NCBI GenBank assembly: GCA_934757825.1
Contig: CAKVLP010000001.1
Location: forward strand, 430,869-494,868
From: an uncultured Clostridia bacterium
GTDB taxonomy: Bacteria > Bacillota > Clostridia > Christensenellales > UBA1242
DNA: 64,000 bases
Reading direction: 5' to 3'
Shown here in pieces: positions 1 to 60,769 of the stretch; positions within the stretch are counted from its first letter, which is position 1, and every line of letters starts with the position of its first letter. The position numbers and the translations under genes are program-made. A model generated the notes under the pieces. That model did no database searches, had not been told where the DNA came from, and saw only the letters and a program-made list of their open reading frames with translations.

Positions 1-205
1 TTTTATCCTCCTTCCCCTCTTTGTTAACACACATATAATATCACAGAATTTCCAAATTTCAAGCAGTGTTGTGCCAGTGTTTTTTGGGTTTTTTTGGCTA
101 GTTTTGTCGAAAAATATAGACAGGCGTCGAAACGAATTTTTAAAAAAACAAAATAAAAAAATTTCGTGACTTATTTGCACGAAATTTCTGTTTTTTGTAT
201 TTACA

Positions 206-907
206 TTACACAAACATTAGGAATGCTACAATTAAGATTTGAGCAACATAATATGTGCCAAGGTTTAGCGCCCAACGTAGGTTTAGGTTTTTCTGAGGCG
301 CGAAGTAAAGTAGTGATAGCACAAGGTCACTTATTAAGAATAGTAGTAGCGCGGTCGCAACAATCCACAATTTGCTTACTAGGAATGCAAGTGCAACCAT
401 TAGCGCAAATGTAATGCAGATTACAAATGTGTAGCCGTAGCATTGTTTTGAAAATCTCCCGAAATCCACACCCAACTTGCCAGCATTTATGCAGATGATT
501 GTTGCAAGCACAGATCCAATAGCAATCGCTACAAATATTGGTACTAGCACTTCGGCTCTGCTACCAGCATAAAGCGTAAAGCCCACAATGTACATAATGT
601 GGCCGATTGCAAAACTTAAAAAGCCTCCGTTTAGATATTGCGACTCGTGAGGTTTGTAATATTCCTTCAAGGCAAGTAGTATGTCGCCTAGCATACCCAT
701 AATTAGACCCAGCAAAACAAAGAACACGTAGGTTTCAATTGTGGATTTCATCATAATGGCTACAACTGCCGAGATTACAAACATAATAGATGCAAGTAGT
801 TTCGACCAGAAAAATGACATTCCAACTTTGGTCACTTTTAATGTGATAAGCGCCGTCAAACTTCCTAGGCAAAGTAGTAAAAATATAATTGATAAAGCGG
901 TTTTCAT
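206..907 (-). CDS. YhhN-family polytopic membrane protein (lysoplasmalogenase-like)
   Basis: 233-aa ORF that is almost entirely hydrophobic spans. Carries MLGDILLAL and LISDLVLSL motifs resembling the two conserved GD/SD-xx-L motifs of YhhN proteins. Confidence 0.5.
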   Translation of the reverse strand: MKTALSIIFLLLCLGSLTALITLKVTKVGMSFFWSKLLASIMFVISAVVAIMMKSTIETYVFFVLLGLIMGMLGDILLALKEYYKPHESQYLNGGFLSFAIGHIMYIVGFTLYAGSRAEVLVPIFVAIAIGSVLATIICINAGKLGVDFGRFSKQCYGYTFVICITFALMVALAFLVSKLWIVATALLLFLISDLVLSLLYFAPQKNLNLRWALNLGTYYVAQILIVAFLMFV

Positions 908-48458: not shown

Positions 48459-48902
48459 ATGAATATAAAACAATGTGATGTTTGCGGTAATAAAATACTT
48501 GTTGATAACTATGGAAATGGGTGTGATTGTCCTATTTGCGGTTGGAGGCAATCGGAGGAATCTTTTAATCATCCAAATACTGCGGGGGTTAGAAATATTC
48601 CAACCTTAAATAATGCTATAAAACAATTTAAAGAAGGGAAATCTGCAACATTGGCAAATTTTGAAGACTTCATTAGTGCTTTCAATAATTATGGAGAGTT
48701 GGAATTTACTTACGACAACAAAAGATTTGGCGTATTGTTGGATGATAAAAGCAATAATATTATTTTATTAAACATTGAAAACAACCAAAAACAATATTAT
48801 TCCAACATTGATAGTTTTGCGCGTACTTCTCAAATAGATGGAATCCCATTAAAAACATTATGGAATAGAGTGACAAATACAGATTTCTTACAAGAAACTT
48901 AA
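48459..48902 (+). CDS. Zinc-ribbon (CPCC-like Cys-rich) protein, paralogue of 59268..59693
   Basis: CDVCG...CDCPICGW four-Cys ribbon at the N-terminus. The first ~26 nt are identical to the start of the 59268 gene. Confidence 0.5.
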   Translation: MNIKQCDVCGNKILVDNYGNGCDCPICGWRQSEESFNHPNTAGVRNIPTLNNAIKQFKEGKSATLANFEDFISAFNNYGELEFTYDNKRFGVLLDDKSNNIILLNIENNQKQYYSNIDSFARTSQIDGIPLKTLWNRVTNTDFLQET

Positions 48903-48947: not shown

Positions 48948-49021
48948 AAAAAAAATCACTAGCAAAACTAGTGATTTTTTGTTGTGGTGCCGAAGGTGGG
49001 GGTCGAACCCACATGAAGTTG
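48948..49021. repeat. Direct repeat copy 1: terminator hairpin plus the last 37 nt of tRNA-Leu(CAA)
   Basis: AAAAAATCACTAGCAAAACTAGTGATTTTTTGTTG+TGGTGCCGAAGGTGGGGGTCGAACCCACATGAAGTTG is identical, apart from one A in the A-run, to 60648-60720. Confidence 0.9.
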
Positions 49022-49182: not shown

Positions 49183-49211
49183 TTGACTTTTTATCCGACT
49201 TAATTTATAAT
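49183..49211 (+). promoter_or_regulatory. Promoter of the island A operon
   Basis: TTGACT, 17-nt spacer, TATAAT, 30 nt upstream of the first ATG. Confidence 0.55.
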
Positions 49212-49240: not shown

Positions 49241-50197
49241 ATGAATTCAATGTTTCAAGAAAATTTAAAAAAACTTGCAAAGCAATACACTCAGAAGGGT
49301 ATTGCGGATAAAACAGGCTTTTCTCAATCTAGTGTTAATAATTATATTTTTGGTGTCAGTGAACCGTCCATACAATTTCTAATTGCATTAAAAGATGCAT
49401 TTGGGGTAAGTGTGGACGATTTTTTGTTTTCTGATTTTGAAGTGGAAGAGAGAGAAACTTATAGTAGATATATTGGGAATTATCTCATTTATTATTATAA
49501 CAATGATTCCTACAAAGGAGAAGTTCATACAAATCTAAAAAATACATTAAACTATGGTGTTTTGAGTGTATTTAAGGATAAGCCGTTTGATAAGTCGGTT
49601 AAGGTTAATGCCATTTTTACAAAAGAACGCACAGATGCGGTAAAACTTTTAAAAATATTAAATTCAACAAAAGAAGTGGGTAAAGTTTATTTAGATTTGA
49701 ACAACTTTTATGTTGGTGATATATCGGCCAGTGATCAGAGCATATTTATTGATTTGGCAAACAAAACAAATGGTGACAAAAGTTTTATTATTTTAAATAA
49801 TCCACCTTCAAAACAAAGTTATATAGGCGGGGTAGGAACATCTAATTCAATTGCAAGGGGTAGAGAACATAACCCATGCATTCAACTTATAATTTTATCA
49901 AAAAAACTCATTGATGTGCCAGATGGAGAGCTGTATAATTTGTTAAAGTTTGATGACTATACAGTAAATATGGATTTTGCAATCAAAGATATAATTTCCT
50001 TGTTTAAGCGTTTGTATGTGGAAAAAAATGAAATTTCAATTGAGCTTACTGACAATCAAAAACAAGCAATTGTGAAAAATAAAATGGAATATCATTTTAA
50101 TGAAATATTGGAAGCAAATGTATTTAGATTTGCGAAAGTTTCAAATAAAGAAGACGATGCAATTTACAAACTAATAAGGGAGGGCATTGATGTTTGA
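49241..50197 (+). CDS. XRE-family helix-turn-helix protein with a ~250-aa C-terminal domain of unknown function
   Basis: The N-terminus (LKKLAKQYTQKGIADKTGFSQSSVNNYIFGVSEPSIQFLIALKDAFGVSVDDFLF) is a typical Cro/CI HTH. Start set at the ATG preceded by GAGG. Confidence 0.6.
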   Translation: MNSMFQENLKKLAKQYTQKGIADKTGFSQSSVNNYIFGVSEPSIQFLIALKDAFGVSVDDFLFSDFEVEERETYSRYIGNYLIYYYNNDSYKGEVHTNLKNTLNYGVLSVFKDKPFDKSVKVNAIFTKERTDAVKLLKILNSTKEVGKVYLDLNNFYVGDISASDQSIFIDLANKTNGDKSFIILNNPPSKQSYIGGVGTSNSIARGREHNPCIQLIILSKKLIDVPDGELYNLLKFDDYTVNMDFAIKDIISLFKRLYVEKNEISIELTDNQKQAIVKNKMEYHFNEILEANVFRFAKVSNKEDDAIYKLIREGIDV

Positions 50198-51614
50198 GGA
50201 TATTGATAAACGATTTGATAGCCTTCTTGAAGCTGTAAAATCCAACGATTTGCCTGTTGAAATAATTAAAAAAGCATATTTAAAAGCGAGGAACTTACAC
50301 AAAGACCAAAAGCGTAAAGATGGCACACCATACATAAGTCATCCCGTTGAAGTTGCACTTATTTTGGCAAAACTTAATTTTGATGAAAATGTCATTGCTG
50401 GTGCTTTACTGCACGATACTATTGAAGATTGTGGATACACTGCCGATGAAATGAAAGCAGATTTTAATGAAACAATTTTTAAACTTGTTGACTGTGTTAG
50501 TGCAATCGACAAAACGAAATATGTGTTTAACAAAGAAAACATTTATGAAGACCCAGAATTTGTTAAATCTTCAGCTGAAGAGCAGACTTTTAAAAAACTA
50601 ATCACTCTCGGCAAAGAGAATCCATGTGGATTTGCAATAAAATTTGCGGATAGATTGCACAATTTAAGGACAATTGAAACATTTGATTATACAAAGCAAC
50701 TTGAAAAAGTGCGAGAAACCGAAAAATGGATTCTTCCTATTGCCAAAGCTCTTAAAGGCGAATATTTTTACAGAGCAATAAAAAATGAATGCTTTAAAAT
50801 TCAAAATCAACAGATAATAAAACCATTTTTGGAACACTATTCAATTTACCACAACTCAAATCAAAAAAATATTGAAAATTTGAACTATAAATTTAAAGAG
50901 ATATTTGCGAATTCATCTATAAAAACAGTAAAGATAAAAAATGTTAGAGAATACAAAGTTTTTGAAGATCTAACAAGGTTGTATAAAAAGGTTGATTTAG
51001 GTAAAATTTCACAAGGACAAATTTTAAAAGTTGCAAACTACAATATTTTTATGATTTACCAAGATGTGCCACATAAAAAAGCTTTAGCTGAAGTTATAAA
51101 TCTATTGAATGCGAAAACAAAGCTTAAAATTATTGATACAAAAATCGGTGGCTTTACAGGTAAAATGTATATGGAAGTTGAAGATGATTGCAAAAACAAA
51201 TATAATGTTTATACTCTTACGGCGAATGAATATACAATAATGAAAGTTGGAACTGCTAATGGTCAAAATCTTGATAAGATAGACGAAGAGAATATCAATG
51301 AACTTGATATGGATTTAATAAAAGTTAAAACTCGTTCCGGAGAACTGCGTTATATTGCGAAGGGTAGTACCGTTTTGGATTTTGCGTTTAAAATTCATAG
51401 AGATATCGGTTTTGCATTTAAGTATGCGATAGTTAACGACAGTAAAACAAAATTTCCACCATACACGAAATTGAATGATGGAGATAAGGTCGAAATAGTA
51501 ACAGAAAAAGATTCGAATGGCGATGCGAAAAATTGTGCACAACTTAAGTGGCTGGCATATGTTAATAGCGAGTTGGCAAAGAAAAATTTAATAAAATGGT
51601 TTGAAAAATTATAA
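50190..51614 (+). CDS. RelA/SpoT-homologue: HD (p)ppGpp-hydrolase-type domain plus TGS domain, with no recognisable synthetase motifs
   Basis: HD region PYISHPVEVALILAKL...ALLHDTIED...ADRLHNLRT. TGS region IKVKTRSGELRYIAKGSTVLDFAFKIHRDIG...LNDGDKVEIVT. The ATG overlaps the upstream stop (ATGTTTGA). Confidence 0.8.
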   Translation: MFEDIDKRFDSLLEAVKSNDLPVEIIKKAYLKARNLHKDQKRKDGTPYISHPVEVALILAKLNFDENVIAGALLHDTIEDCGYTADEMKADFNETIFKLVDCVSAIDKTKYVFNKENIYEDPEFVKSSAEEQTFKKLITLGKENPCGFAIKFADRLHNLRTIETFDYTKQLEKVRETEKWILPIAKALKGEYFYRAIKNECFKIQNQQIIKPFLEHYSIYHNSNQKNIENLNYKFKEIFANSSIKTVKIKNVREYKVFEDLTRLYKKVDLGKISQGQILKVANYNIFMIYQDVPHKKALAEVINLLNAKTKLKIIDTKIGGFTGKMYMEVEDDCKNKYNVYTLTANEYTIMKVGTANGQNLDKIDEENINELDMDLIKVKTRSGELRYIAKGSTVLDFAFKIHRDIGFAFKYAIVNDSKTKFPPYTKLNDGDKVEIVTEKDSNGDAKNCAQLKWLAYVNSELAKKNLIKWFEKL

Positions 51615-51629
51615 TGGGAGAACACTAGT

Positions 51630-52802
51630 ATGTTATGTAGAATTATAAAAACCAAAAAAAGTACGGAAGTTGTATTAGTGCAGGCAATAACAGAAGATTT
51701 GCAAAAAATAAACATGATATTTGAAAGAGCTTTATTTGATGAATATAATATAGTTAATTCAAATATAGTTGATTTAGATGTAGAAAAAATAAAAGACTTT
51801 AAAGGTAATGATATTTGGAATGTTGTTAAAATCAACAAGTTATTTTATGGGAATAAAAAAGAGCCTTATAAAAACCCTGAAGAATTACACTATTCACAAA
51901 AGACTACTATAAATAGAAAATTTATACAAGCGTATAATGCTGGAGATAATTTAAAAAAATGGATTTTCAAACAAAAGCTAACAGAGCAGTTGTCTAAATT
52001 GATGACTGAAAAAGGATTTATGCGTATTTACACAAATAATATTATGGATGAACGTGGAACGTCTATTGTAAATCCGATGAAAGTGTCATCTAATTTTAGC
52101 GAAACAAAGTATTTGAAAATAACAAATGAATTATTGCTGAAAGAGGCATCTTTTCTAACAATGCAACCTGTTTTTGAGATTGGTTATGTGTCAAGGGATA
52201 TTTATAAAAACAGGGATGATTTAAATGAATATTTATCTTTAGAGGCAGTGCAAAATATAAAACTGAACTATGATCTAGCAGAGTTATATCACGAAATTTA
52301 TGAGACAGCAGTTGAAACAGCTCAACGATGTGGACTTGAAGACAGCATATCAGTTCCACCTATTCGCATTGTGGATGTTTTAAAGGAGTTTAAATATGCT
52401 GGTAAATTTGATATTGGTGCATTTAAAGATTATTATAAAACATTAGTTAAAACACTAGATAAAGAAAATGTAATTTTTGTAAATGCTCCTACAAACTCTC
52501 CATTAGCTAAAAAGATAGATATTGGAATTGGATTGGAAACAAAATGGAGATTATGTGGTGCTGGTGTTGGTCATGGATATTGGAGTGAAATTGACCATGA
52601 GTTAGTATCCCAACATATGCAATATCAAGTTGATGAGTTAAAATCTAAAGGAGTTGATACTAAATTACCATTAAACTTTATAAATTCATTAAAATATGCC
52701 GGAATGGAAAATTGTGCATTTAATTTAGGAATTGATAGATTTTATTATAAATTTTTAGGATATCCATCCATAAGAGATTCTGAAAATGTTTTAGGACTAT
52801 AA
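51630..52802 (+). CDS. Class II (subclass IIb, Lys/Asp/Asn-type) aminoacyl-tRNA-synthetase-like ligase paralogue
   Basis: Motif 1 region LMTEKGFMRIYTNNI, motif 2 region VFEIGYVSRD...NEYLSLEA and motif 3 FNLGIDRFYYKFLGYPSIRDS. The N-terminus is only ~100 aa and highly divergent. Confidence 0.65.
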   Translation: MLCRIIKTKKSTEVVLVQAITEDLQKINMIFERALFDEYNIVNSNIVDLDVEKIKDFKGNDIWNVVKINKLFYGNKKEPYKNPEELHYSQKTTINRKFIQAYNAGDNLKKWIFKQKLTEQLSKLMTEKGFMRIYTNNIMDERGTSIVNPMKVSSNFSETKYLKITNELLLKEASFLTMQPVFEIGYVSRDIYKNRDDLNEYLSLEAVQNIKLNYDLAELYHEIYETAVETAQRCGLEDSISVPPIRIVDVLKEFKYAGKFDIGAFKDYYKTLVKTLDKENVIFVNAPTNSPLAKKIDIGIGLETKWRLCGAGVGHGYWSEIDHELVSQHMQYQVDELKSKGVDTKLPLNFINSLKYAGMENCAFNLGIDRFYYKFLGYPSIRDSENVLGL

Positions 52803-52812
52803 GGAGATTTAA

Positions 52813-54027
52813 GTGAAAAAAGTATTAGTAATGTGGCCTCCACAATTAATGTTTTATGGAAGTGTATTTAGGCACTTTACTTTTGTAGGAGAAACAATAG
52901 ATTACATATGTAAAAATGTAGATGCAGAAGTTGAATATATTGATTGTGGAATTGAAATGTATTCTCTAAAAGTTATTCAAAATCACTTTAAAAACAATCA
53001 ATATTTGGTGATTTACGGAGAAACTTATACCATAGAATCGTGTAGGAAAATGGCTAAATTGGCAAAGCAAGTAAATCCACAAATAAAGATTATTGGATTT
53101 GGCAGAGCGTTTTGTTATATGCCACAATATTTTTTAAGCAACAATTTTGATGCGGTTGTTGTAAATGGTTTTTGGGAAAAATCTATTGTAGACTTTATTA
53201 ATGAAAACACGGCGGATGATTGCGGTGAAATCCTTACACTGGAAGGTCGAAAAGGTAAACCTTATCAGTTGCAACCTGATGAATGGGGTGTCCCTAGGTT
53301 GGATAAAATCCCATATGAAAAGTATTTTGAGATTACTCAAAAGAAACAACTGGAAATATGTGTTAATAAAGGATGTCCTTATAATTGTTCTTTTTGTTCA
53401 GAGAAGTTTGTTTATGGGAGGAAAGAAGGTAGAAGAAGCCCCAATAATTTGATAAAGTTTATAGAATCTTCTCATCACTTGTGTGATACTTATTTCTTTG
53501 ATGCTACAACATTTACATTTGATAAACAATGGGTAAAAGAAGTATGCGAAAAAATTAAAGCGTTGCCTTATAAAATAAAATGGTGCACTACAACTAGGTT
53601 AGATGAATTAAGTGAAGATTTAATTAAAATGATGTCAGAAGCCGGTTGTTTTAGATTAAGTGTTGGTGTCGAGACTTTGAATAAAGATATACAAAAAAAC
53701 GTGCATAAAGAAATAAATTATAACAATATGATAGATTTGTTCAATTTGTTAAAGAAATATAATATAAAGCCTCGAGCATTATTAATTTGTGGCCTTCCTG
53801 GTCAAACAAAAGAAGAATTGTTGCATACATATCAAAAAGTAAAAGAAATGGATTTGGATTTTCGTTTTAAAGAATATGCACCGTATAATGAAATTTTGAA
53901 AGATGGGGTAAGTAGACAGGTTATTGATAGATTTGACAGAACTGAATATATGAGTGATGATATAGATGTCAAGGATTTGTCTTCAGAACAATATATGGAA
54001 CTTTTATTTGCTGATACCGGGAGGTAA
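52813..54027 (+). CDS. B12-binding-domain radical SAM enzyme (class B-like)
   Basis: N-terminal Rossmann-like cobalamin-domain layout followed by the CxxxCxxC cluster (CPYNCSFC). GTG start with AAGGAG RBS. Confidence 0.75.
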   Translation: MKKVLVMWPPQLMFYGSVFRHFTFVGETIDYICKNVDAEVEYIDCGIEMYSLKVIQNHFKNNQYLVIYGETYTIESCRKMAKLAKQVNPQIKIIGFGRAFCYMPQYFLSNNFDAVVVNGFWEKSIVDFINENTADDCGEILTLEGRKGKPYQLQPDEWGVPRLDKIPYEKYFEITQKKQLEICVNKGCPYNCSFCSEKFVYGRKEGRRSPNNLIKFIESSHHLCDTYFFDATTFTFDKQWVKEVCEKIKALPYKIKWCTTTRLDELSEDLIKMMSEAGCFRLSVGVETLNKDIQKNVHKEINYNNMIDLFNLLKKYNIKPRALLICGLPGQTKEELLHTYQKVKEMDLDFRFKEYAPYNEILKDGVSRQVIDRFDRTEYMSDDIDVKDLSSEQYMELLFADTGR

Positions 54028-54030
54028 AAT

Positions 54031-55071
54031 ATGATATTATATTTAAAATCTTCTATTTCAATATCCGCTTATACTGGATGTTTAATAGGGTGTAAATATT
54101 GCATACTTGGCACATGTAGAGAAAACAATAAGATATGGAAAGTAATTGATGAAGAGAAACTAATACAAAATCTAAGTGATTATAAATATTTTGTTAAAGA
54201 TTTTACGCCTATCACAATTAACAATACTAGCGATCCATTCCTAAACAATATATTGAAGAAAAGTACTTTTAAATTATTAAACTTAATAGAACAAAAAGGA
54301 TGGAAAAATCCATTGATTCTCATAACTAAAGGCTATTTAAGTGATGAAGATATAAAAATATTAAGTAAAGTTAATCTTAATATGTATATATTTTACACAT
54401 TGTCAGGATTGTCGGAGACTATGGAAAATAGAAACTTATCAACTCAAATATATACTATAGAAAAACTTTCTACATGTAAGAATATTAAATTAATTCATTA
54501 TTGGCGTCCTGTAATAGAAGGAATAAATAGCGACGATAAAACGATAGAGTCGGTTGCAATATTAGCCACAAAATATTTTAAAGCAAGTATAATTTCAGGA
54601 ATAAGGGTTAATTCGCATATTAAAGACATGTTCGCAAAAGAAAACATTCCAATGCTAATATCTCCAAACGCTGAACATAAAGTTATTTTAGATAAGACCT
54701 TTAGAAAAATATATGACAAGTGTAAAGAATTGGATCCGGGATATAGGATATTTAAAAAGACGTCTTGTTGTATAAGTTATTTTGAAAATGATGTTGATTA
54801 TAATGGTTATGCATTATCAAAAAAATTTTGCTCTGAAGCTTGTCCTAATTATCAAAATTGTTCACATGCAAAATATCCAAGCAAAAGAGATATCGGCAAA
54901 CTATTACATAATTTTGGTATCAAATCAAAATACTCCATAGAAAAATATACGCTACATATTCATACTACACTTTCTCAAGAAGACTGTTCAGCAATTAGGC
55001 ACAATCTAAAGATCAAAGTTATTCCCGATAAATTGATAAAAAGTAATTCGGAGGATGAATTATCAAAATGA
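54031..55071 (+). CDS. Radical SAM enzyme (SplB/COG1533-like) with a Cys-rich C-terminal region
   Basis: YTGCLIGCKYC (CxxxCxxC) near the N-terminus. The C-terminus has SCCISYF...FCSEACPNYQNC. GGGAGG RBS upstream. Confidence 0.7.
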   Translation: MILYLKSSISISAYTGCLIGCKYCILGTCRENNKIWKVIDEEKLIQNLSDYKYFVKDFTPITINNTSDPFLNNILKKSTFKLLNLIEQKGWKNPLILITKGYLSDEDIKILSKVNLNMYIFYTLSGLSETMENRNLSTQIYTIEKLSTCKNIKLIHYWRPVIEGINSDDKTIESVAILATKYFKASIISGIRVNSHIKDMFAKENIPMLISPNAEHKVILDKTFRKIYDKCKELDPGYRIFKKTSCCISYFENDVDYNGYALSKKFCSEACPNYQNCSHAKYPSKRDIGKLLHNFGIKSKYSIEKYTLHIHTTLSQEDCSAIRHNLKIKVIPDKLIKSNSEDELSK

Positions 55072-55604
55072 TATCGATTTGTTATGATTTGCACAACACT
55101 TTGATTAAAAGTGATCCAGCATGGTTAAAAGCTTTTAAGAAATTGTGTAAAAATAGATACCCTGTCATAAAACAAGAATATAAATTTATGAGTAGAAAAG
55201 CTATATGTAGGAAATACAATATAGATTTTGAAACCCTTGAAAACGAGTACAGAAAACATATACGATTAAATAAAAAAGTGTGTAAGACATATTATAAATA
55301 TTTAGATGAGTATCCAACGATGATAATATCAAATGCTCCAGCAAGTCGTGTTTATAAAGATATTGAAAAATGTAAACTTAATCACGATTTAGTAAAGATT
55401 TATACAAAAGAAGATGGTGAAAAGCCTGCTAGCAAATACATAAATAAAATATTGTCGCAAAATAAAATTCAATTTGCTATAATGATTGGAGACAACAAGG
55501 ATGAAGACATATTTAATCTAACAAACGTTAAAACAATGCTCGTTGATAAAACAAAAAATATAAACAAAGAGATAAATAAAATATTGGAGAGTTTAAAAAG
55601 ATGA
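55068..55604 (+). CDS. HAD-superfamily hydrolase with atypical motif I
   Basis: Motif I YDLHNTL (DxHxT instead of DxDxT), motif II ISNAP and motif IV IGDNKDED. The ATGA start overlaps the upstream stop. Confidence 0.55.
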   Translation: MISICYDLHNTLIKSDPAWLKAFKKLCKNRYPVIKQEYKFMSRKAICRKYNIDFETLENEYRKHIRLNKKVCKTYYKYLDEYPTMIISNAPASRVYKDIEKCKLNHDLVKIYTKEDGEKPASKYINKILSQNKIQFAIMIGDNKDEDIFNLTNVKTMLVDKTKNINKEINKILESLKR

Positions 55605-56266
55605 AAATTTATTTACTTAGTGGGCCAGATAAATATAAAGGATATTGTGATGTTCTTAAAGCAGATATAAGCAATGAGGTCAATAATATAAAATGTTTAG
55701 TTGGCATTGCCGCCAATCCCAATAAACATGAGAAGAACGATAAAATGTTTTTTGGTGATGGGGCTTGTCCTGGCGTTGTTAATATGTTAAAGTCTTGCAA
55801 CATTCAAATAGACGAAAGCATTTTAATAGATGATAGAATGGATGTTCAAACTGCGAAATTAACCATAGAAAGAGCTGATGCTATATATTTGTTGGGTGGC
55901 GACCCTATGAGTCAATACAAATTTATTGAAAGTATTGGTTGTCTTGAGGTATTAAAAGAATTTAGTGGAATTATATTTGGTATTAGTGCTGGTTCAATGA
56001 ATTGTTCAAATAATGTTTTATATTTTGCAGAGGATGGGTCTAACGATATAATAAAATATAAAGGGTTAGGGATTTCTTCAGTATATATCTACCCTCACTT
56101 TTCAGTAGACAATGAAGAATTGGTTTCACAATTAAAACAGTTATCGCAAGATACGGACATTTTCGCTTTGCCAAACGATTCTTATATTAAAACAACTAAC
56201 AACAAAACCGAGATAGTAGGTAAATGTTATTTATTTTCAAATCGAAAGATTACGGAGTTGAATTAG
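55601..56266 (+). CDS. Peptidase S51 (dipeptidase E / cyanophycinase-type) family protein
   Basis: AIYLLGGDP...GISAGSMNC...YPHF matches the GG(N/D)...G-x-SAG-S/A...H arrangement of S51. The ATGA start overlaps the upstream stop. Confidence 0.6.
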   Translation: MKIYLLSGPDKYKGYCDVLKADISNEVNNIKCLVGIAANPNKHEKNDKMFFGDGACPGVVNMLKSCNIQIDESILIDDRMDVQTAKLTIERADAIYLLGGDPMSQYKFIESIGCLEVLKEFSGIIFGISAGSMNCSNNVLYFAEDGSNDIIKYKGLGISSVYIYPHFSVDNEELVSQLKQLSQDTDIFALPNDSYIKTTNNKTEIVGKCYLFSNRKITELN

Positions 56267-56818
56267 TTGGAGCTAATTAAGTATTATAATCAAGATGGTG
56301 ACTACGTAAAGACATTAGAAAGAAATCATCCATCTTCTAAAGAATTATGGTACAATATTGTTGTAGGATTAATTGTAAATTTAAAATTTCGAAAATTATA
56401 TTTACAATTAGATACCGAAAATAATCTACAACTAACTGCTGGCGGACACGTACAATGTGATGAAGAATCTAATGAGGCTATAGCTAGAGAAATATTGGAA
56501 GAAACTGGAATAAATGTTGGCGATTGTGAGTTGTTAAATACATTTACATATAAGTGTTATTCTAAAAATCAGTTCCATAAATATTATATATATAATGCGG
56601 ATATTACATTAAACTCGTTTCAAATAAAAGACAAAAAAGAGGTATTAACTTTTATTGAACTTGATATAGATGAATTGTTAAACCAAGCAGGCTGTATTGG
56701 AAAAGATGTTGAGGGAATTAAAAAAAGTCTAAATTATTATGAGGTTGTAAAAGCCTTTAATGGTGAATATGTTTTATATCAAATATGTAATATTATAAAA
56801 AATCTTCCATCGGTATAA
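56267..56818 (+). CDS. Nudix hydrolase
   Basis: Nudix box GGHVQCDEESNEAIAREILEETGI. TTG start directly after the upstream TAG. Confidence 0.7.
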   Translation: MELIKYYNQDGDYVKTLERNHPSSKELWYNIVVGLIVNLKFRKLYLQLDTENNLQLTAGGHVQCDEESNEAIAREILEETGINVGDCELLNTFTYKCYSKNQFHKYYIYNADITLNSFQIKDKKEVLTFIELDIDELLNQAGCIGKDVEGIKKSLNYYEVVKAFNGEYVLYQICNIIKNLPSV

Positions 56819-57071
56819 CGTTGGAAGATTTAATTTTTGTTATAAATAAATTTGTATTGTTCCTTTTTAAAAGATTGTTTTATTTTGGTATCCTAGCGTG
56901 TGCTTGTCTTGATGCAAGTAAACGCTTTTGTTCCGCCTTGAGATGATAAACGAGAACTCTTTATTGTCTCTTTTTTTGGTGTTGTGTTTCATTTTGGCTT
57001 GTTATTGAGCACATTAAACGGTAGTTTAAGCAATAAAAAGACTAAATCAAATATTTGATTTAGTCTTTATT

Positions 57072-57127
57072 TGGTGCCGAAGGTGGGGGTCGAACCCACA
57101 TGAAGTTGCCCTCGCAAGATTTTGAGT
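57072..57127. repeat. Direct repeat copy 2: last 56 nt of tRNA-Leu(CAA), from CCA through the anticodon loop
   Basis: TGGTGCCGAAGG...CCCTCGCAAGATTTTGAGT is identical to 60684-60739. It is preceded by a different hairpin (AAAGACTAAATCAAATATTTGATTTAGTCTTT). Confidence 0.9.
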
Positions 57128-59267: not shown

Positions 59268-59693
59268 ATGAATATAAAACAATGTGATGTTTGTGGGAAA
59301 AATATAAAAGTAGATAAATGGGGTAATGGTAAGTGTAAAAATTGCGGGTGGATTCAATGTGAAGCGTCTTTAAAAAACCCAAATGAAGTTAAATATCCTA
59401 ATATTACTTCATTCAATAACGCGAAGGAATTAAGTGTTAAGAAACAAAAACTAAAACCAACATACGAAGAGTTTATAATTATCGTCAAAGAAAATTTAGA
59501 GCCAAGTTTTAAGTACAAAAATAAAAAATATGGCAATACAAATTTTAATGGTTTTGAATTTTTTGAGTTTAATTCTGAAAAGTGCTATCAAAAATATTCC
59601 TCTATTGAAGAATTTGATAAAAATGTAAATATAAATGGAAAACACTTAAAAGATTTGTGGGATAGTGTAAACCACTTTGAACTAAATTGTTAA
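59268..59693 (+). CDS. Zinc-ribbon (CPCC-like) protein, paralogue of 48459..48902
   Basis: Start chosen at the ATG with AAAGGAGG 7 nt upstream. MNIKQCDVCGKNIKVDKWGNGKCKNCGW parallels MNIKQCDVCGNKILVDNYGNGCDCPICGW. Confidence 0.5.
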   Translation: MNIKQCDVCGKNIKVDKWGNGKCKNCGWIQCEASLKNPNEVKYPNITSFNNAKELSVKKQKLKPTYEEFIIIVKENLEPSFKYKNKKYGNTNFNGFEFFEFNSEKCYQKYSSIEEFDKNVNINGKHLKDLWDSVNHFELNC

Positions 59694-60647: not shown

Positions 60648-60720
60648 AAAAAAATCACTAGCAAAACTAGTGATTTTTTGTTGTGGTGCCGAAGGTGGGG
60701 GTCGAACCCACATGAAGTTG
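60648..60720. repeat. Direct repeat copy 3: hairpin plus tRNA-Leu 3' end (part of the intact gene)
   Basis: See copy 1. Confidence 0.9.
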
Positions 60721-60769
60721 CCCTCGCAAGATTTTGAGTCTTGTGCGTCTGCCATTCCGCCACTTCGGC
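60684..60769 (-). tRNA. tRNA-Leu (anticodon CAA), long variable arm, CCA encoded
   Basis: The reverse complement is GCCGAAGTGGCGGAATGGCAGACGCACAAGACTCAAAATCTTGCGAGGGCAACTTCATGTGGGTTCGACCCCCACCTTCGGCACCA. Acceptor stem GCCGAAG/CTTCGGC, anticodon stem CAAGA/TCTTG with loop CTCAAAA, T stem GTGGG/CCCAC. Confidence 0.9.

Follow-up and report, generated by a model that had tools for sequence, protein, structure and literature searches.

Gene content of the locus

The stretch of DNA analysed here (64,000 nt; hereafter the window) belongs to an uncultured Clostridia bacterium of the order Christensenellales. It carries a gene for a RelA/SpoT homologue (RSH) in which an HD hydrolase domain and a TGS domain flank a synthetase-like region with a dead site. 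We call the product HD-TGS and regard it as a candidate dedicated (p)ppGpp hydrolase. The gene lies directly behind, and overlaps, a gene for a protein with an XRE-type helix-turn-helix (HTH) domain. Both belong to an 8-gene operon in a low-GC block (0.29-0.30 vs 0.38-0.41), enclosed by copies of a tRNA-Leu 3' end (Table 1). We describe the domain content, fold and residue status of HD-TGS, its gene pairing, its genomic distribution and the structure of the island.

The open reading frame (ORF) called for HD-TGS in the window (50187..51614, 475 aa) begins with TTG. A GGGAGGG ribosome-binding site, however, precedes an ATG at 50190, this ATG overlaps the TGA stop of the upstream gene as ATGTTTGA, and homologues of HD-TGS likewise start with MF(E/D). 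For these reasons ATG 50190 is likely the true start, and it is also where an earlier prediction, made from the sequence alone, had placed it (the original prediction). The start of the HTH gene at ATG 49241 was inferred from homologue alignment, the ribosome-binding site and the position of the promoter.

Table 1. Coordinates of the HD-TGS gene, its neighbours and the island boundaries in the window, with the long RSH of the same genome.
Feature	Position	Strand	Description or basis
Left att-like repeat	48949..49021		Repeat family D1; hairpin + 37 nt of tRNA-Leu(CAA) 3' end; 73 nt, 100 % identical to 60648-60720
Sigma-70-like promoter TTGACT-17-TATAAT	49183..49211	+	Consensus scan, 11/12 positions; consensus match only
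XRE-type HTH partner gene	49241..50197	+	Pfam HTH_3; stop overlaps RSH start by 8 nt
HTH partner, domains	residues ~8-73, 89-230, 238-323 (328-aa ORF call)		HTH, beta-rich and helical, respectively; AlphaFold2/Foldseek
HD-pseudoSYN-TGS gene	50190..51614	+	474 aa from ATG 50190; Pfam, AlphaFold2, Foldseek, hhalign
HD-TGS, HD hydrolase domain	residues ~30-190		
HD-TGS, pseudo-synthetase	residues ~195-355		
HD-TGS, linker	residues 357-374		
HD-TGS, TGS	residues 378-439		
HD-TGS, C-terminal helix	residues 453-474		
Class II aminoacyl-tRNA synthetase-like core	51630-52802	+	No anticodon domain; Pfam/NCBIfam
B12-binding radical SAM	52813-54027	+	Pfam/NCBIfam
Second radical-SAM-like gene	54031-55071	+	No Pfam match
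HAD	55068-55604	+	Pfam/NCBIfam
Peptidase S51	55601-56266	+	Pfam/NCBIfam
Nudix	56267-56818	+	Pfam/NCBIfam
Middle att-like repeat	57036..57108		Partial copy: different hairpin + tRNA-Leu 3' end; closes the operon's island
Intact tRNA-Leu(CAA), putative integration target	60684..60769	-	ARAGORN; Rfam tRNA, 57 bits
Long RSH of the window genome	G000 contig 2, ~181.6-183.8 kb; locus L087:310-2496		

Domain architecture and hydrolase site of HD-TGS

The original prediction had described an RSH that keeps the hydrolase and TGS domains and lacks both a functional synthetase and the C-terminal regulatory domains, and this description held; neither of the findings that would have overturned it, a preserved synthetase site or loss of the HD catalytic residues, was made. 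Pfam matched HD_4 at residues 33-180 (E 2.9e-24) and TGS (E 3.2e-15), and did not match the synthetase domain RelA_SpoT (PF04607). AH/RIS and ACT, which are both present in the long RSH of the same genome, gave no match in HD-TGS, and the protein ends 36 residues past the TGS domain. In phmmer searches against PDB chains of Rel, RelA and SpoT, HD-TGS gave E-values of 1e-21 to 5e-35, and it is a member of the RSH superfamily. Its score against the RelA/SpoT family model TIGR00691 was 184 bits, compared with a cut-off of 499. Of the architecture of a long RSH (HD, SYNTH, TGS, helical, zinc-finger (CC) and ACT/RRM), it has only HD, a pseudo-SYNTH, TGS and a single C-terminal helix. Nor is it a small alarmone hydrolase (SAH), which has a single HD domain only: pseudo-SYNTH and TGS are two more folded domains, modelled with a predicted local distance difference test (pLDDT) score of ~85-93.

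The three motifs on which the hydrolase had been recognised, HPVEV, LLHDTIED and ADRLHNLRT, are all present. In an alignment of 26 family members with 58-92 % identity to the window protein, R43, H52, P53, H76, D77, E80, D81, D155 and N159 were invariant. The catalytic residues aligned with the same motifs in eight outgroup Rel proteins, and the metal-binding and catalytic residues were kept also in distant relatives scoring 230-300 bits. We take the RSH hydrolase residues to be H53, H77/D78, E81/D82, D144 and N148 in RelSeq numbering. The residues expected of an active RSH hydrolase are present, and the activity itself is predicted. In both sequence and fold, the HD domain was closest to the HD domains of long RSHs (1e-25 to 1e-35), while MESH1 and (pp)pApp hydrolases matched at 1e-13 or worse. 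In the TGS domain, H404 was invariant in the family; it corresponds to H420 of B. subtilis Rel, the histidine that senses the tRNA CCA end.

The middle region is a pseudo-synthetase

When the middle 198 aa were scanned alone against Pfam at E <= 10, PF04607 did not appear and the matches were noise. An AlphaFold2 model of HD-TGS, built on the 26 family members, had a mean pLDDT of 82.6 and a predicted template modelling (TM) score of 0.70, with pLDDT ~90 across residues 190-350. In Foldseek searches against the PDB, the model aligned over 356-381 columns with HD+SYNTH crystal structures of Rel from S. aureus, T. thermophilus, RelSeq and M. tuberculosis (target-normalised TM 0.65-0.78), and over ~500 columns with full-length B. 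subtilis Rel. The top match was full-length A. baumannii SpoT (7qpr, E 3e-23), the probability was 1.0 for SpoT and Rel, and the small synthetase RelP was also among the matches. The model indicates that the middle region has the synthetase fold. The earlier observation that these ~180 aa lack the synthetase motifs was confirmed, with the refinement that the region is not a different domain; it is a synthetase fold with a dead site.

The synthetase site was mapped by hhalign profile-profile alignment against 21 long RSHs, with positions presumed from the RelSeq numbering. The G-R-P-K-H motif conserved in long RSHs reads KVFED in the HD-TGS family. The catalytic Asp and the Arg of D-L-x-A-x-R are replaced by K281 and N286, the His of S-L-H-T by E332, and the catalytic Glu of E-I-Q-I-R-T by N340, and the segment KDYIA.PK is deleted. 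On the mapping and the Pfam scan, a cryptic or competent synthetase was rejected. The substitute residues are themselves conserved: K257, Q276, G277, N284, Y285, D317 and D333 were invariant among the 26 members, and N340 nearly so. Because the replacements are conserved, we concluded that the middle 180 aa are a maintained pseudo-synthetase in which every catalytic residue has been replaced, and not decaying sequence.

Size of the HD-TGS family

By word-indexed search, more than 120 clusters were obtained, 444-485 aa in length and 57-93 % identical, all with HD_4 and TGS. The few named members were labelled 'HD domain-containing protein' and came from metagenome-assembled genomes of Christensenellales or Clostridia. 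An exhaustive profile search extended the family to 890 representatives at E <= 1e-30. Many were 474-500 aa long with a single full-length match, others were 600-625 aa long with a C-terminal extension, and further ones were 650-690 aa long with an N-terminal extension of ~140 aa. Ten representatives were sampled; all ten had HD_4 and TGS, and none had a synthetase domain. HD-TGS is a large family without a name, from small-genome, Christensenellales-like Clostridia. Among the longer forms, which are distant relatives, P0143 (625 aa) has TGS domains in tandem, the TGS model matching in two stretches and the TGS motif being repeated in the sequence, and P0164 (673 aa) and P0171 (689 aa) had a helical N-terminal extension of ~140-170 aa without a Pfam match.

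Loss of the synthetase motifs and of the C-terminal domains could also be expected if HD-TGS were merely what is left of a duplicated rel gene, in decay and now without a function. Conservation already contradicts such a remnant, and we give it hardly any credence: hundreds of full-length homologues are intact over a range of 39-93 % identity, their catalytic residues are invariant and their frames undisrupted, and the replaced residues of the synthetase site are conserved as well.

The HTH partner gene

An XRE-HTH gene encoding 317-343 aa was found directly upstream of HD-TGS in 28 of 28 family loci as well as in the window, and in most cases its stop overlapped the HD-TGS start. Full-length homologues of the partner (E <= 1e-69) were restricted to 19 of the 37 genus genomes, exactly those that carry HD-TGS, and always lay next to it; the partner query gave generic HTH matches only in the remaining 18. 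The two genes diverge together, since their identities (HTH/HD-TGS) were 68/59 %, 80/79 % and 97/94 % in three comparisons. The partner was modelled with pLDDT 77 and contains strongly conserved motifs, NNPP...YIGGxGTxN..ARGREHNPC and FRFAKVSNKEDD. A profile search of the PDB matched HTH domains only, leaving the C-terminal 250 aa without a match. Foldseek likewise returned HTH domains, and its matches to calycin-like barrels (TM ~0.4) were too weak to be accepted as the fold of this part.

At nearly every family locus, a TTGAC(A/T)...TATAAT-like site precedes the HTH start by 30-60 nt. No palindrome common to the upstream regions of all family loci was found that could be a shared operator; a dyad of the TTTAT-N6-ATAAA type overlapped the -10 box in four related loci only. 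Rfam found tRNA-Leu only, and no riboswitch or T-box, in the region.

The strict pairing raises the alternative that the two proteins form one signalling device, in which HD-TGS, binding (p)ppGpp or uncharged tRNA through the TGS domain, controls DNA binding by the partner, or the partner replaces the lost C-terminal half in trans. The main job would then be to switch the downstream operon, and hydrolysis would end the signal. Adjacency, co-occurrence, the stop/start overlap and the joint divergence of the genes are all expected of such a device, same-strand genes often follow within 11-158 nt (a sole-copy CysRS gene among them), and the large conserved domain of the partner is weakly barrel-like, as ligand-binding domains often are. 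Set against this, at six or more loci the gene that follows runs in the opposite direction, which leaves no downstream operon to be switched; no shared operator was found; and the invariant catalytic residues of the HD domain favour a real enzyme over a pure sensor. We consider this alternative unlikely, though it is the foremost of the rivals and worth keeping in mind. It is similarly doubtful that the proteins make up a physical two-protein device, with the conserved 250-aa domain of the partner standing in for the C-terminal half in trans and coupling alarmone or uncharged-tRNA status, read by TGS and pseudo-synthetase, to transcription of the pair and the downstream cassette. If true, this device would be of a kind not known for any RSH, a portable module that resets the stringent response and spreads among reduced gut Clostridia with a synthesis-only Rel. 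A dedicated (p)ppGpp hydrolase remains the reading that we prefer, and the state of the other RSH of these genomes bears on it directly.

Long RSH of the lineage and distribution of hydrolases

The window genome (1.09 Mb, ~96 % complete) encodes only one other RSH, a protein of 728 aa with RelA_SpoT (4e-36), TGS, AH/RIS and ACT. Its HD region scored 38.7 bits and has lost all catalytic motifs (HP, HD..ED and DRLHN): LYYC replaces LLHD, CIEKEKLN replaces ADRLHN, and four residues are deleted at the HP motif. This long RSH is predicted to be RelA-like and synthetase-only. The original prediction had noted neither this loss nor the constant HTH partner. An insertion of ~27 aa (KKLQKKNM...) was also seen after its first synthetase motif.

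All 13 long RSHs of the genus that were inspected by residue lacked the HD motifs and had the synthetase motifs, and none of the 34 detected in the genus matched the HD region of the HD-TGS query. Other families of the same order differed: 24 of 24 matched the HD region (1e-16 to 1e-25), and the eight that were checked by residue were all intact. In further genomes bearing the HD-TGS family, the HD motifs were lost from the long RSH in 13 of 16, where some of the 16 may overlap the genus sample under other handles.

In a phylogenetic tree, the pseudo-HD long RSHs formed one clade (support 99 in the Shimodaira-Hasegawa-like approximate likelihood ratio test, SH-aLRT), sister (95) to three HD-intact long RSHs that come from genomes also carrying HD-TGS. 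The HD-TGS family was recovered as a single clade (100), whose long branch falls outside every long RSH sampled. The simplest history would be that HD-TGS was already present when the long RSH lost its hydrolase, in a single event. As for the origin of HD-TGS, local duplication and import would fit the tree equally. At the locus of a deep-branching member, the long RSH gene (L028:13825-15630, minus strand) is found ~5.5 kb from the HTH/HD-TGS pair, with AspRS directly upstream of the pair; this arrangement could be a trace of local duplication at an ancestral rel-hisS-aspS locus.

HD-TGS with its partner was present in 19 of the 37 genus genomes. Another 13 had no HD-TGS and carried an SAH of 182-237 aa with intact motifs, and five had no HD_4 hydrolase at all. 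HD-TGS and SAH never occurred together (hypergeometric P 2.4e-6, ignoring phylogeny). Two of the 19 genomes with HD-TGS encoded an additional, distinct HD protein of ~150 aa.

The putative island at tRNA-Leu

The tRNA-Leu 3' end occurs as three direct copies, with a hairpin in front of each. These copies appear to bound two islands in tandem, one at 49.0-57.1 kb with the operon and one at 57.1-60.6 kb. ORF and domain scans of the window found no integrase gene between the att-like repeats. In G033, whose long RSH is 80 % identical to that of the window genome, the flanks are present, the segment corresponding to 42.9-60.6 kb of the window is missing from the locus, and a different insert of ~3 kb is found at the same tRNA. 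HD-TGS was absent from the whole genomes of G008, G033, G025 and G032 (long RSH 84, 80, 55 and 55 % identical to the window's). The att core had no exact match in the other loci, only in the window's own genome, and the pair is therefore not integrated at tRNA-Leu as a rule.

The island at 57.1-60.6 kb contains genes for small-terminase-like, ParB-like/DUF4417, CPCC zinc-ribbon and radical SAM proteins. Cysteine-rich paralogues of the CPCC type are encoded at 48459-48902 and 59268-59693, each to the left of an att copy. Repeat D2, which spans their starts and the 33 nt before them, shows 79 % identity over 94 nt. In the metagenomic contig L001, the pair and its cassette adjoin a Hachiman-like HamA/DEAD-helicase pair and a cluster of three DNA methylases with an HNH nuclease (L001:1-6521), a defence-island setting. 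PADLOC gave generic HTH and radical-SAM matches only, and a known defence system was rejected.

A mobile gene with the invariant H404 in its TGS domain might also serve tRNA repair, the TGS domain docking the CCA end while the HD domain removes the 3'-pyrophosphate left by translation-targeting toxSAS toxins (CapRel, FaRel2, PhRel) that phages, mobile elements or competitors deliver. Aminoacylation of tRNA pyrophosphorylated by FaRel2 is restored by the SAHs MESH1 and ATfaRel (bioRxiv 10.1101/2021.04.30.441581), aminoacyl-tRNA synthetase (aaRS) genes or their paralogues recur beside the pair, and island and defence settings such as those above would suit this function. However, neither a small synthetase nor a toxSAS was found in eight genus genomes searched, where the long RSH held the only PF04607 domain, and PADLOC gave no specific match. 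SAHs catalyse the same reaction without a TGS domain, and the complementary distribution of HD-TGS and SAHs, together with the pseudo-HD long RSH, is more simply explained by alarmone turnover. We regard tRNA repair as rather improbable. A toxSAS antitoxin was rejected, as no such toxin was seen in the eight genomes and the gene neighbour is an HTH protein and not a small alarmone synthetase, and the analogy to such antitoxins that had been drawn earlier was not borne out.

Predicted function and comparison with known RSHs

Drawing on sequence, predicted structure and distribution, we favour, with a probability of roughly 60 %, the reading that HD-TGS is a dedicated (p)ppGpp hydrolase. It would be a shortened analogue of SpoT[Hs] with an evolutionary origin of its own, co-expressed with the HTH partner and probably regulated by it. 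The HD domain would remove the 3'-pyrophosphate from (p)ppGpp in a Mn2+-dependent manner. The dead synthetase fold and the TGS domain would act as intramolecular scaffolds or allosteric elements for the HD site, as in A. baumannii SpoT[Hs], and the ribosome-anchoring helical, zinc-finger and ACT/RRM regions would have been shed from a long-RSH ancestor. The pair's own promoter and the overlapping stop and start would keep enzyme and XRE-HTH protein at a fixed stoichiometry; the most likely role of the partner is autoregulation of the pair, and it may act on the enzyme directly as well. We infer these scaffold and partner roles. Because the resident long RSH is predicted to be synthetase-only, it would make the alarmone, and HD-TGS, or an SAH in other genomes, would supply the degrading half of the stringent-response cycle. 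The pair would have reached the window genome on the integrase-less tRNA-Leu island, along with an unrelated, biosynthetic-looking cassette.

In the textbook case, that of RelA and SpoT in Beta- and Gammaproteobacteria, Rel has been divided between one enzyme that only synthesises and one that only hydrolyses; the division is complete only in Moraxellaceae. The same split would have arisen independently in uncultured gut Clostridia. It differs from the RelA/SpoT case in that the hydrolase half retains only HD, pseudo-synthetase and TGS, comes with an HTH partner gene of its own, and behaves as an accessory gene, open to exchange and alternating with SAHs. HD-TGS would offer a natural minimal construct for the contribution of TGS and pseudo-synthetase to hydrolysis.

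SpoT[Hs] of Moraxellaceae is a monofunctional hydrolase with a pseudo-SYNTH beside a synthetase-only RelA; its TGS beta-hairpin and Core clamp HD alpha6-alpha7, and deletion of TGS-HEL cuts hydrolysis 42-fold (PMC9974481). The A. baumannii protein (7qpr), the best structural match to our model, is what HD-TGS is predicted to be, a monofunctional hydrolase derived from a long RSH; it too has an intact HD, a pseudo-synthetase fold and TGS, and coexists with a synthetase-only, pseudo-hydrolase long RSH, which is RelA there. By its sequence, HD-TGS likewise looks hydrolase-competent and synthetase-incompetent with a RelA[hS]-type companion, but the two are not orthologous: HD-TGS is truncated, forms a separate long-branch clade, and would have originated in Bacillota/Clostridia independently of the proteobacterial protein. 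SpoT[Hs] keeps the hydrolysis-stimulating helical, zinc-finger and RRM domains, which the C-terminus of HD-TGS leaves no room for. SpoT is a core chromosomal gene without a dedicated HTH partner, whereas HD-TGS is patchy, apparently horizontally exchanged, and on a putative island here. Since the TGS domain of SpoT[Hs] scaffolds the HD site, retention of TGS and pseudo-synthetase can be explained without tRNA sensing; alarmone hydrolysis gated by the state of tRNA, an activity proposed in the original prediction, may find some support in the kept H404, but the TGS domain could have been retained as a scaffold.

Among Firmicutes, RshC[HS] is described as a long-RSH subgroup of Bacilli, truncated after TGS and annotated [HS] (PMC3153485). 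It resembles HD-TGS as a second, divergent long-RSH copy; compared by that description and not by sequence, its synthetase looks competent, whereas that of HD-TGS is dead. Published classifications distinguish 11, later 13, long-RSH subgroups (PMC3153485, PMC7229694), and in the descriptions compared, supplementary subgroup tables aside, none combines the features of HD-TGS. SAHs (Mesh1, RelH, PbcSpo/ATfaRel, PaSpo) are likewise stand-alone HD hydrolases of the (p)ppGpp type, and an SAH occupies the niche of HD-TGS in genus genomes without it. They are single-domain proteins of ~150-240 aa, whereas HD-TGS keeps two further domains of long RSHs and has an HD domain much nearer to theirs. With bifunctional Rel (RelSeq 1vj7, T. 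thermophilus 6s2t, B. subtilis 6yxa) HD-TGS shares the order and fold of HD, SYNTH and TGS, but all its synthetase catalytic residues are replaced and the C-terminal, ribosome-binding half is missing.

Several observations weigh against a dedicated (p)ppGpp hydrolase that completes the alarmone cycle. The substrate is suggested by homology alone. The alpha6-alpha7 region of the HD domain contains an insertion of 12-15 aa relative to Rel, modelled with pLDDT <50; this loop is longer in HD-TGS, whereas it is shortened in SpoT[Hs]. No RSH system characterised so far includes an equivalent of the HTH partner. In three of the 16 further family-bearing genomes, the HD motifs of the long RSH looked largely intact, with single substitutions in G065 and G074. 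Five genus genomes (G008, G025, G032, G033 and G035) have a synthetase-only long RSH and no HD_4 hydrolase, so an RSH hydrolase is not indispensable in the genus; four of the five are 93-97 % complete, and the long RSH, at 54-84 % identity, confirms four as closely related to the window genome. HD-TGS is accessory DNA on a putative island in the window genome. Its identity to the window protein varied from 39 to 69 % among genomes whose long RSHs were 50-53 % identical, and this unevenness, the island setting and the relatives without a copy suggest horizontal exchange of the pair within the genus instead of a stable housekeeping role.

Natural genomes with a synthetase-only RSH and no RSH hydrolase pose the question of how (p)ppGpp is cleared in them. 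The lineage probably also invites misannotation, because HD-TGS proteins bear no label beyond 'HD domain-containing protein' and standard pipelines would take the clade's long RSHs for bifunctional.

Genes downstream of the pair

In the window, the aaRS-like gene begins 15 nt after the stop codon of HD-TGS and would surely be co-transcribed with it. A functional link between the two had been suggested earlier and did not survive comparison with other loci. Between the window and L001, the cassette genes were 77-96 % identical, while HTH was 68 % and HD-TGS 59 % identical (the corresponding cassette at L001:11447-16687 has a second S51 gene). Between L001 and L012, conversely, the pairs were 97/94 % identical and the cassettes different. 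Over ~17 contexts, the downstream genes varied widely and included Asp/Asn-type aaRS, CysRS, HisRS, P-type ATPase, sugar-nucleotide genes and genes on the opposite strand. The aaRS-like/radical-SAM cassette is a separately evolving, swappable neighbour of the pair, and with this history of its own it was rejected as a functional partner of HD-TGS. It looks like a mobile biosynthetic or modification unit.

The co-directional nucleotide and amino-acid cassettes of several loci (aaRS-like, Nudix, HAD, PLP decarboxylase) would suit a hydrolase acting on another nucleotide, such as (pp)pApp, NADPH, PAPS or a cassette intermediate, in the accessory metabolism of the islands. RSH-type HD domains with (pp)pApp, NADPH and PAPS as substrates are known, and the Foldseek matches included 7smg, 5vxa and 9chy. 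We see only a slim chance for such a substrate, as the pair is kept where the cassettes are exchanged, cassettes are missing from many loci, and the HD domain is nearer to those of long RSHs than to MESH1 and (pp)pApp hydrolases, by the E-values given above.

The aaRS genes were beside the pair more frequently than we would expect. The order rel-dtd-hisS-aspS is an ordinary neighbourhood in Bacillota and was seen at the Rel loci L032, L036, L037 and L041. In two Onthoplasma-labelled genomes, the sole CysRS gene follows HD-TGS after 72 nt (L016:11512-12933) and 11 nt (L018:2654-4075); the gene and the pair are probably transcribed together, the gap being too short for a T-box leader. At L004:11412-15819 and L006:11437-15853, an alternative cassette behind the pair encodes a pyridoxal phosphate (PLP)-dependent decarboxylase, a 217-aa protein without assigned function, a HAD-like protein and a divergent extra MetRS paralogue, which shares ~30 % identity with the 660-aa housekeeping MetRS encoded in that genome. 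Such a gene set is reminiscent of self-resistance or of aminoacyl-dependent biosynthesis.

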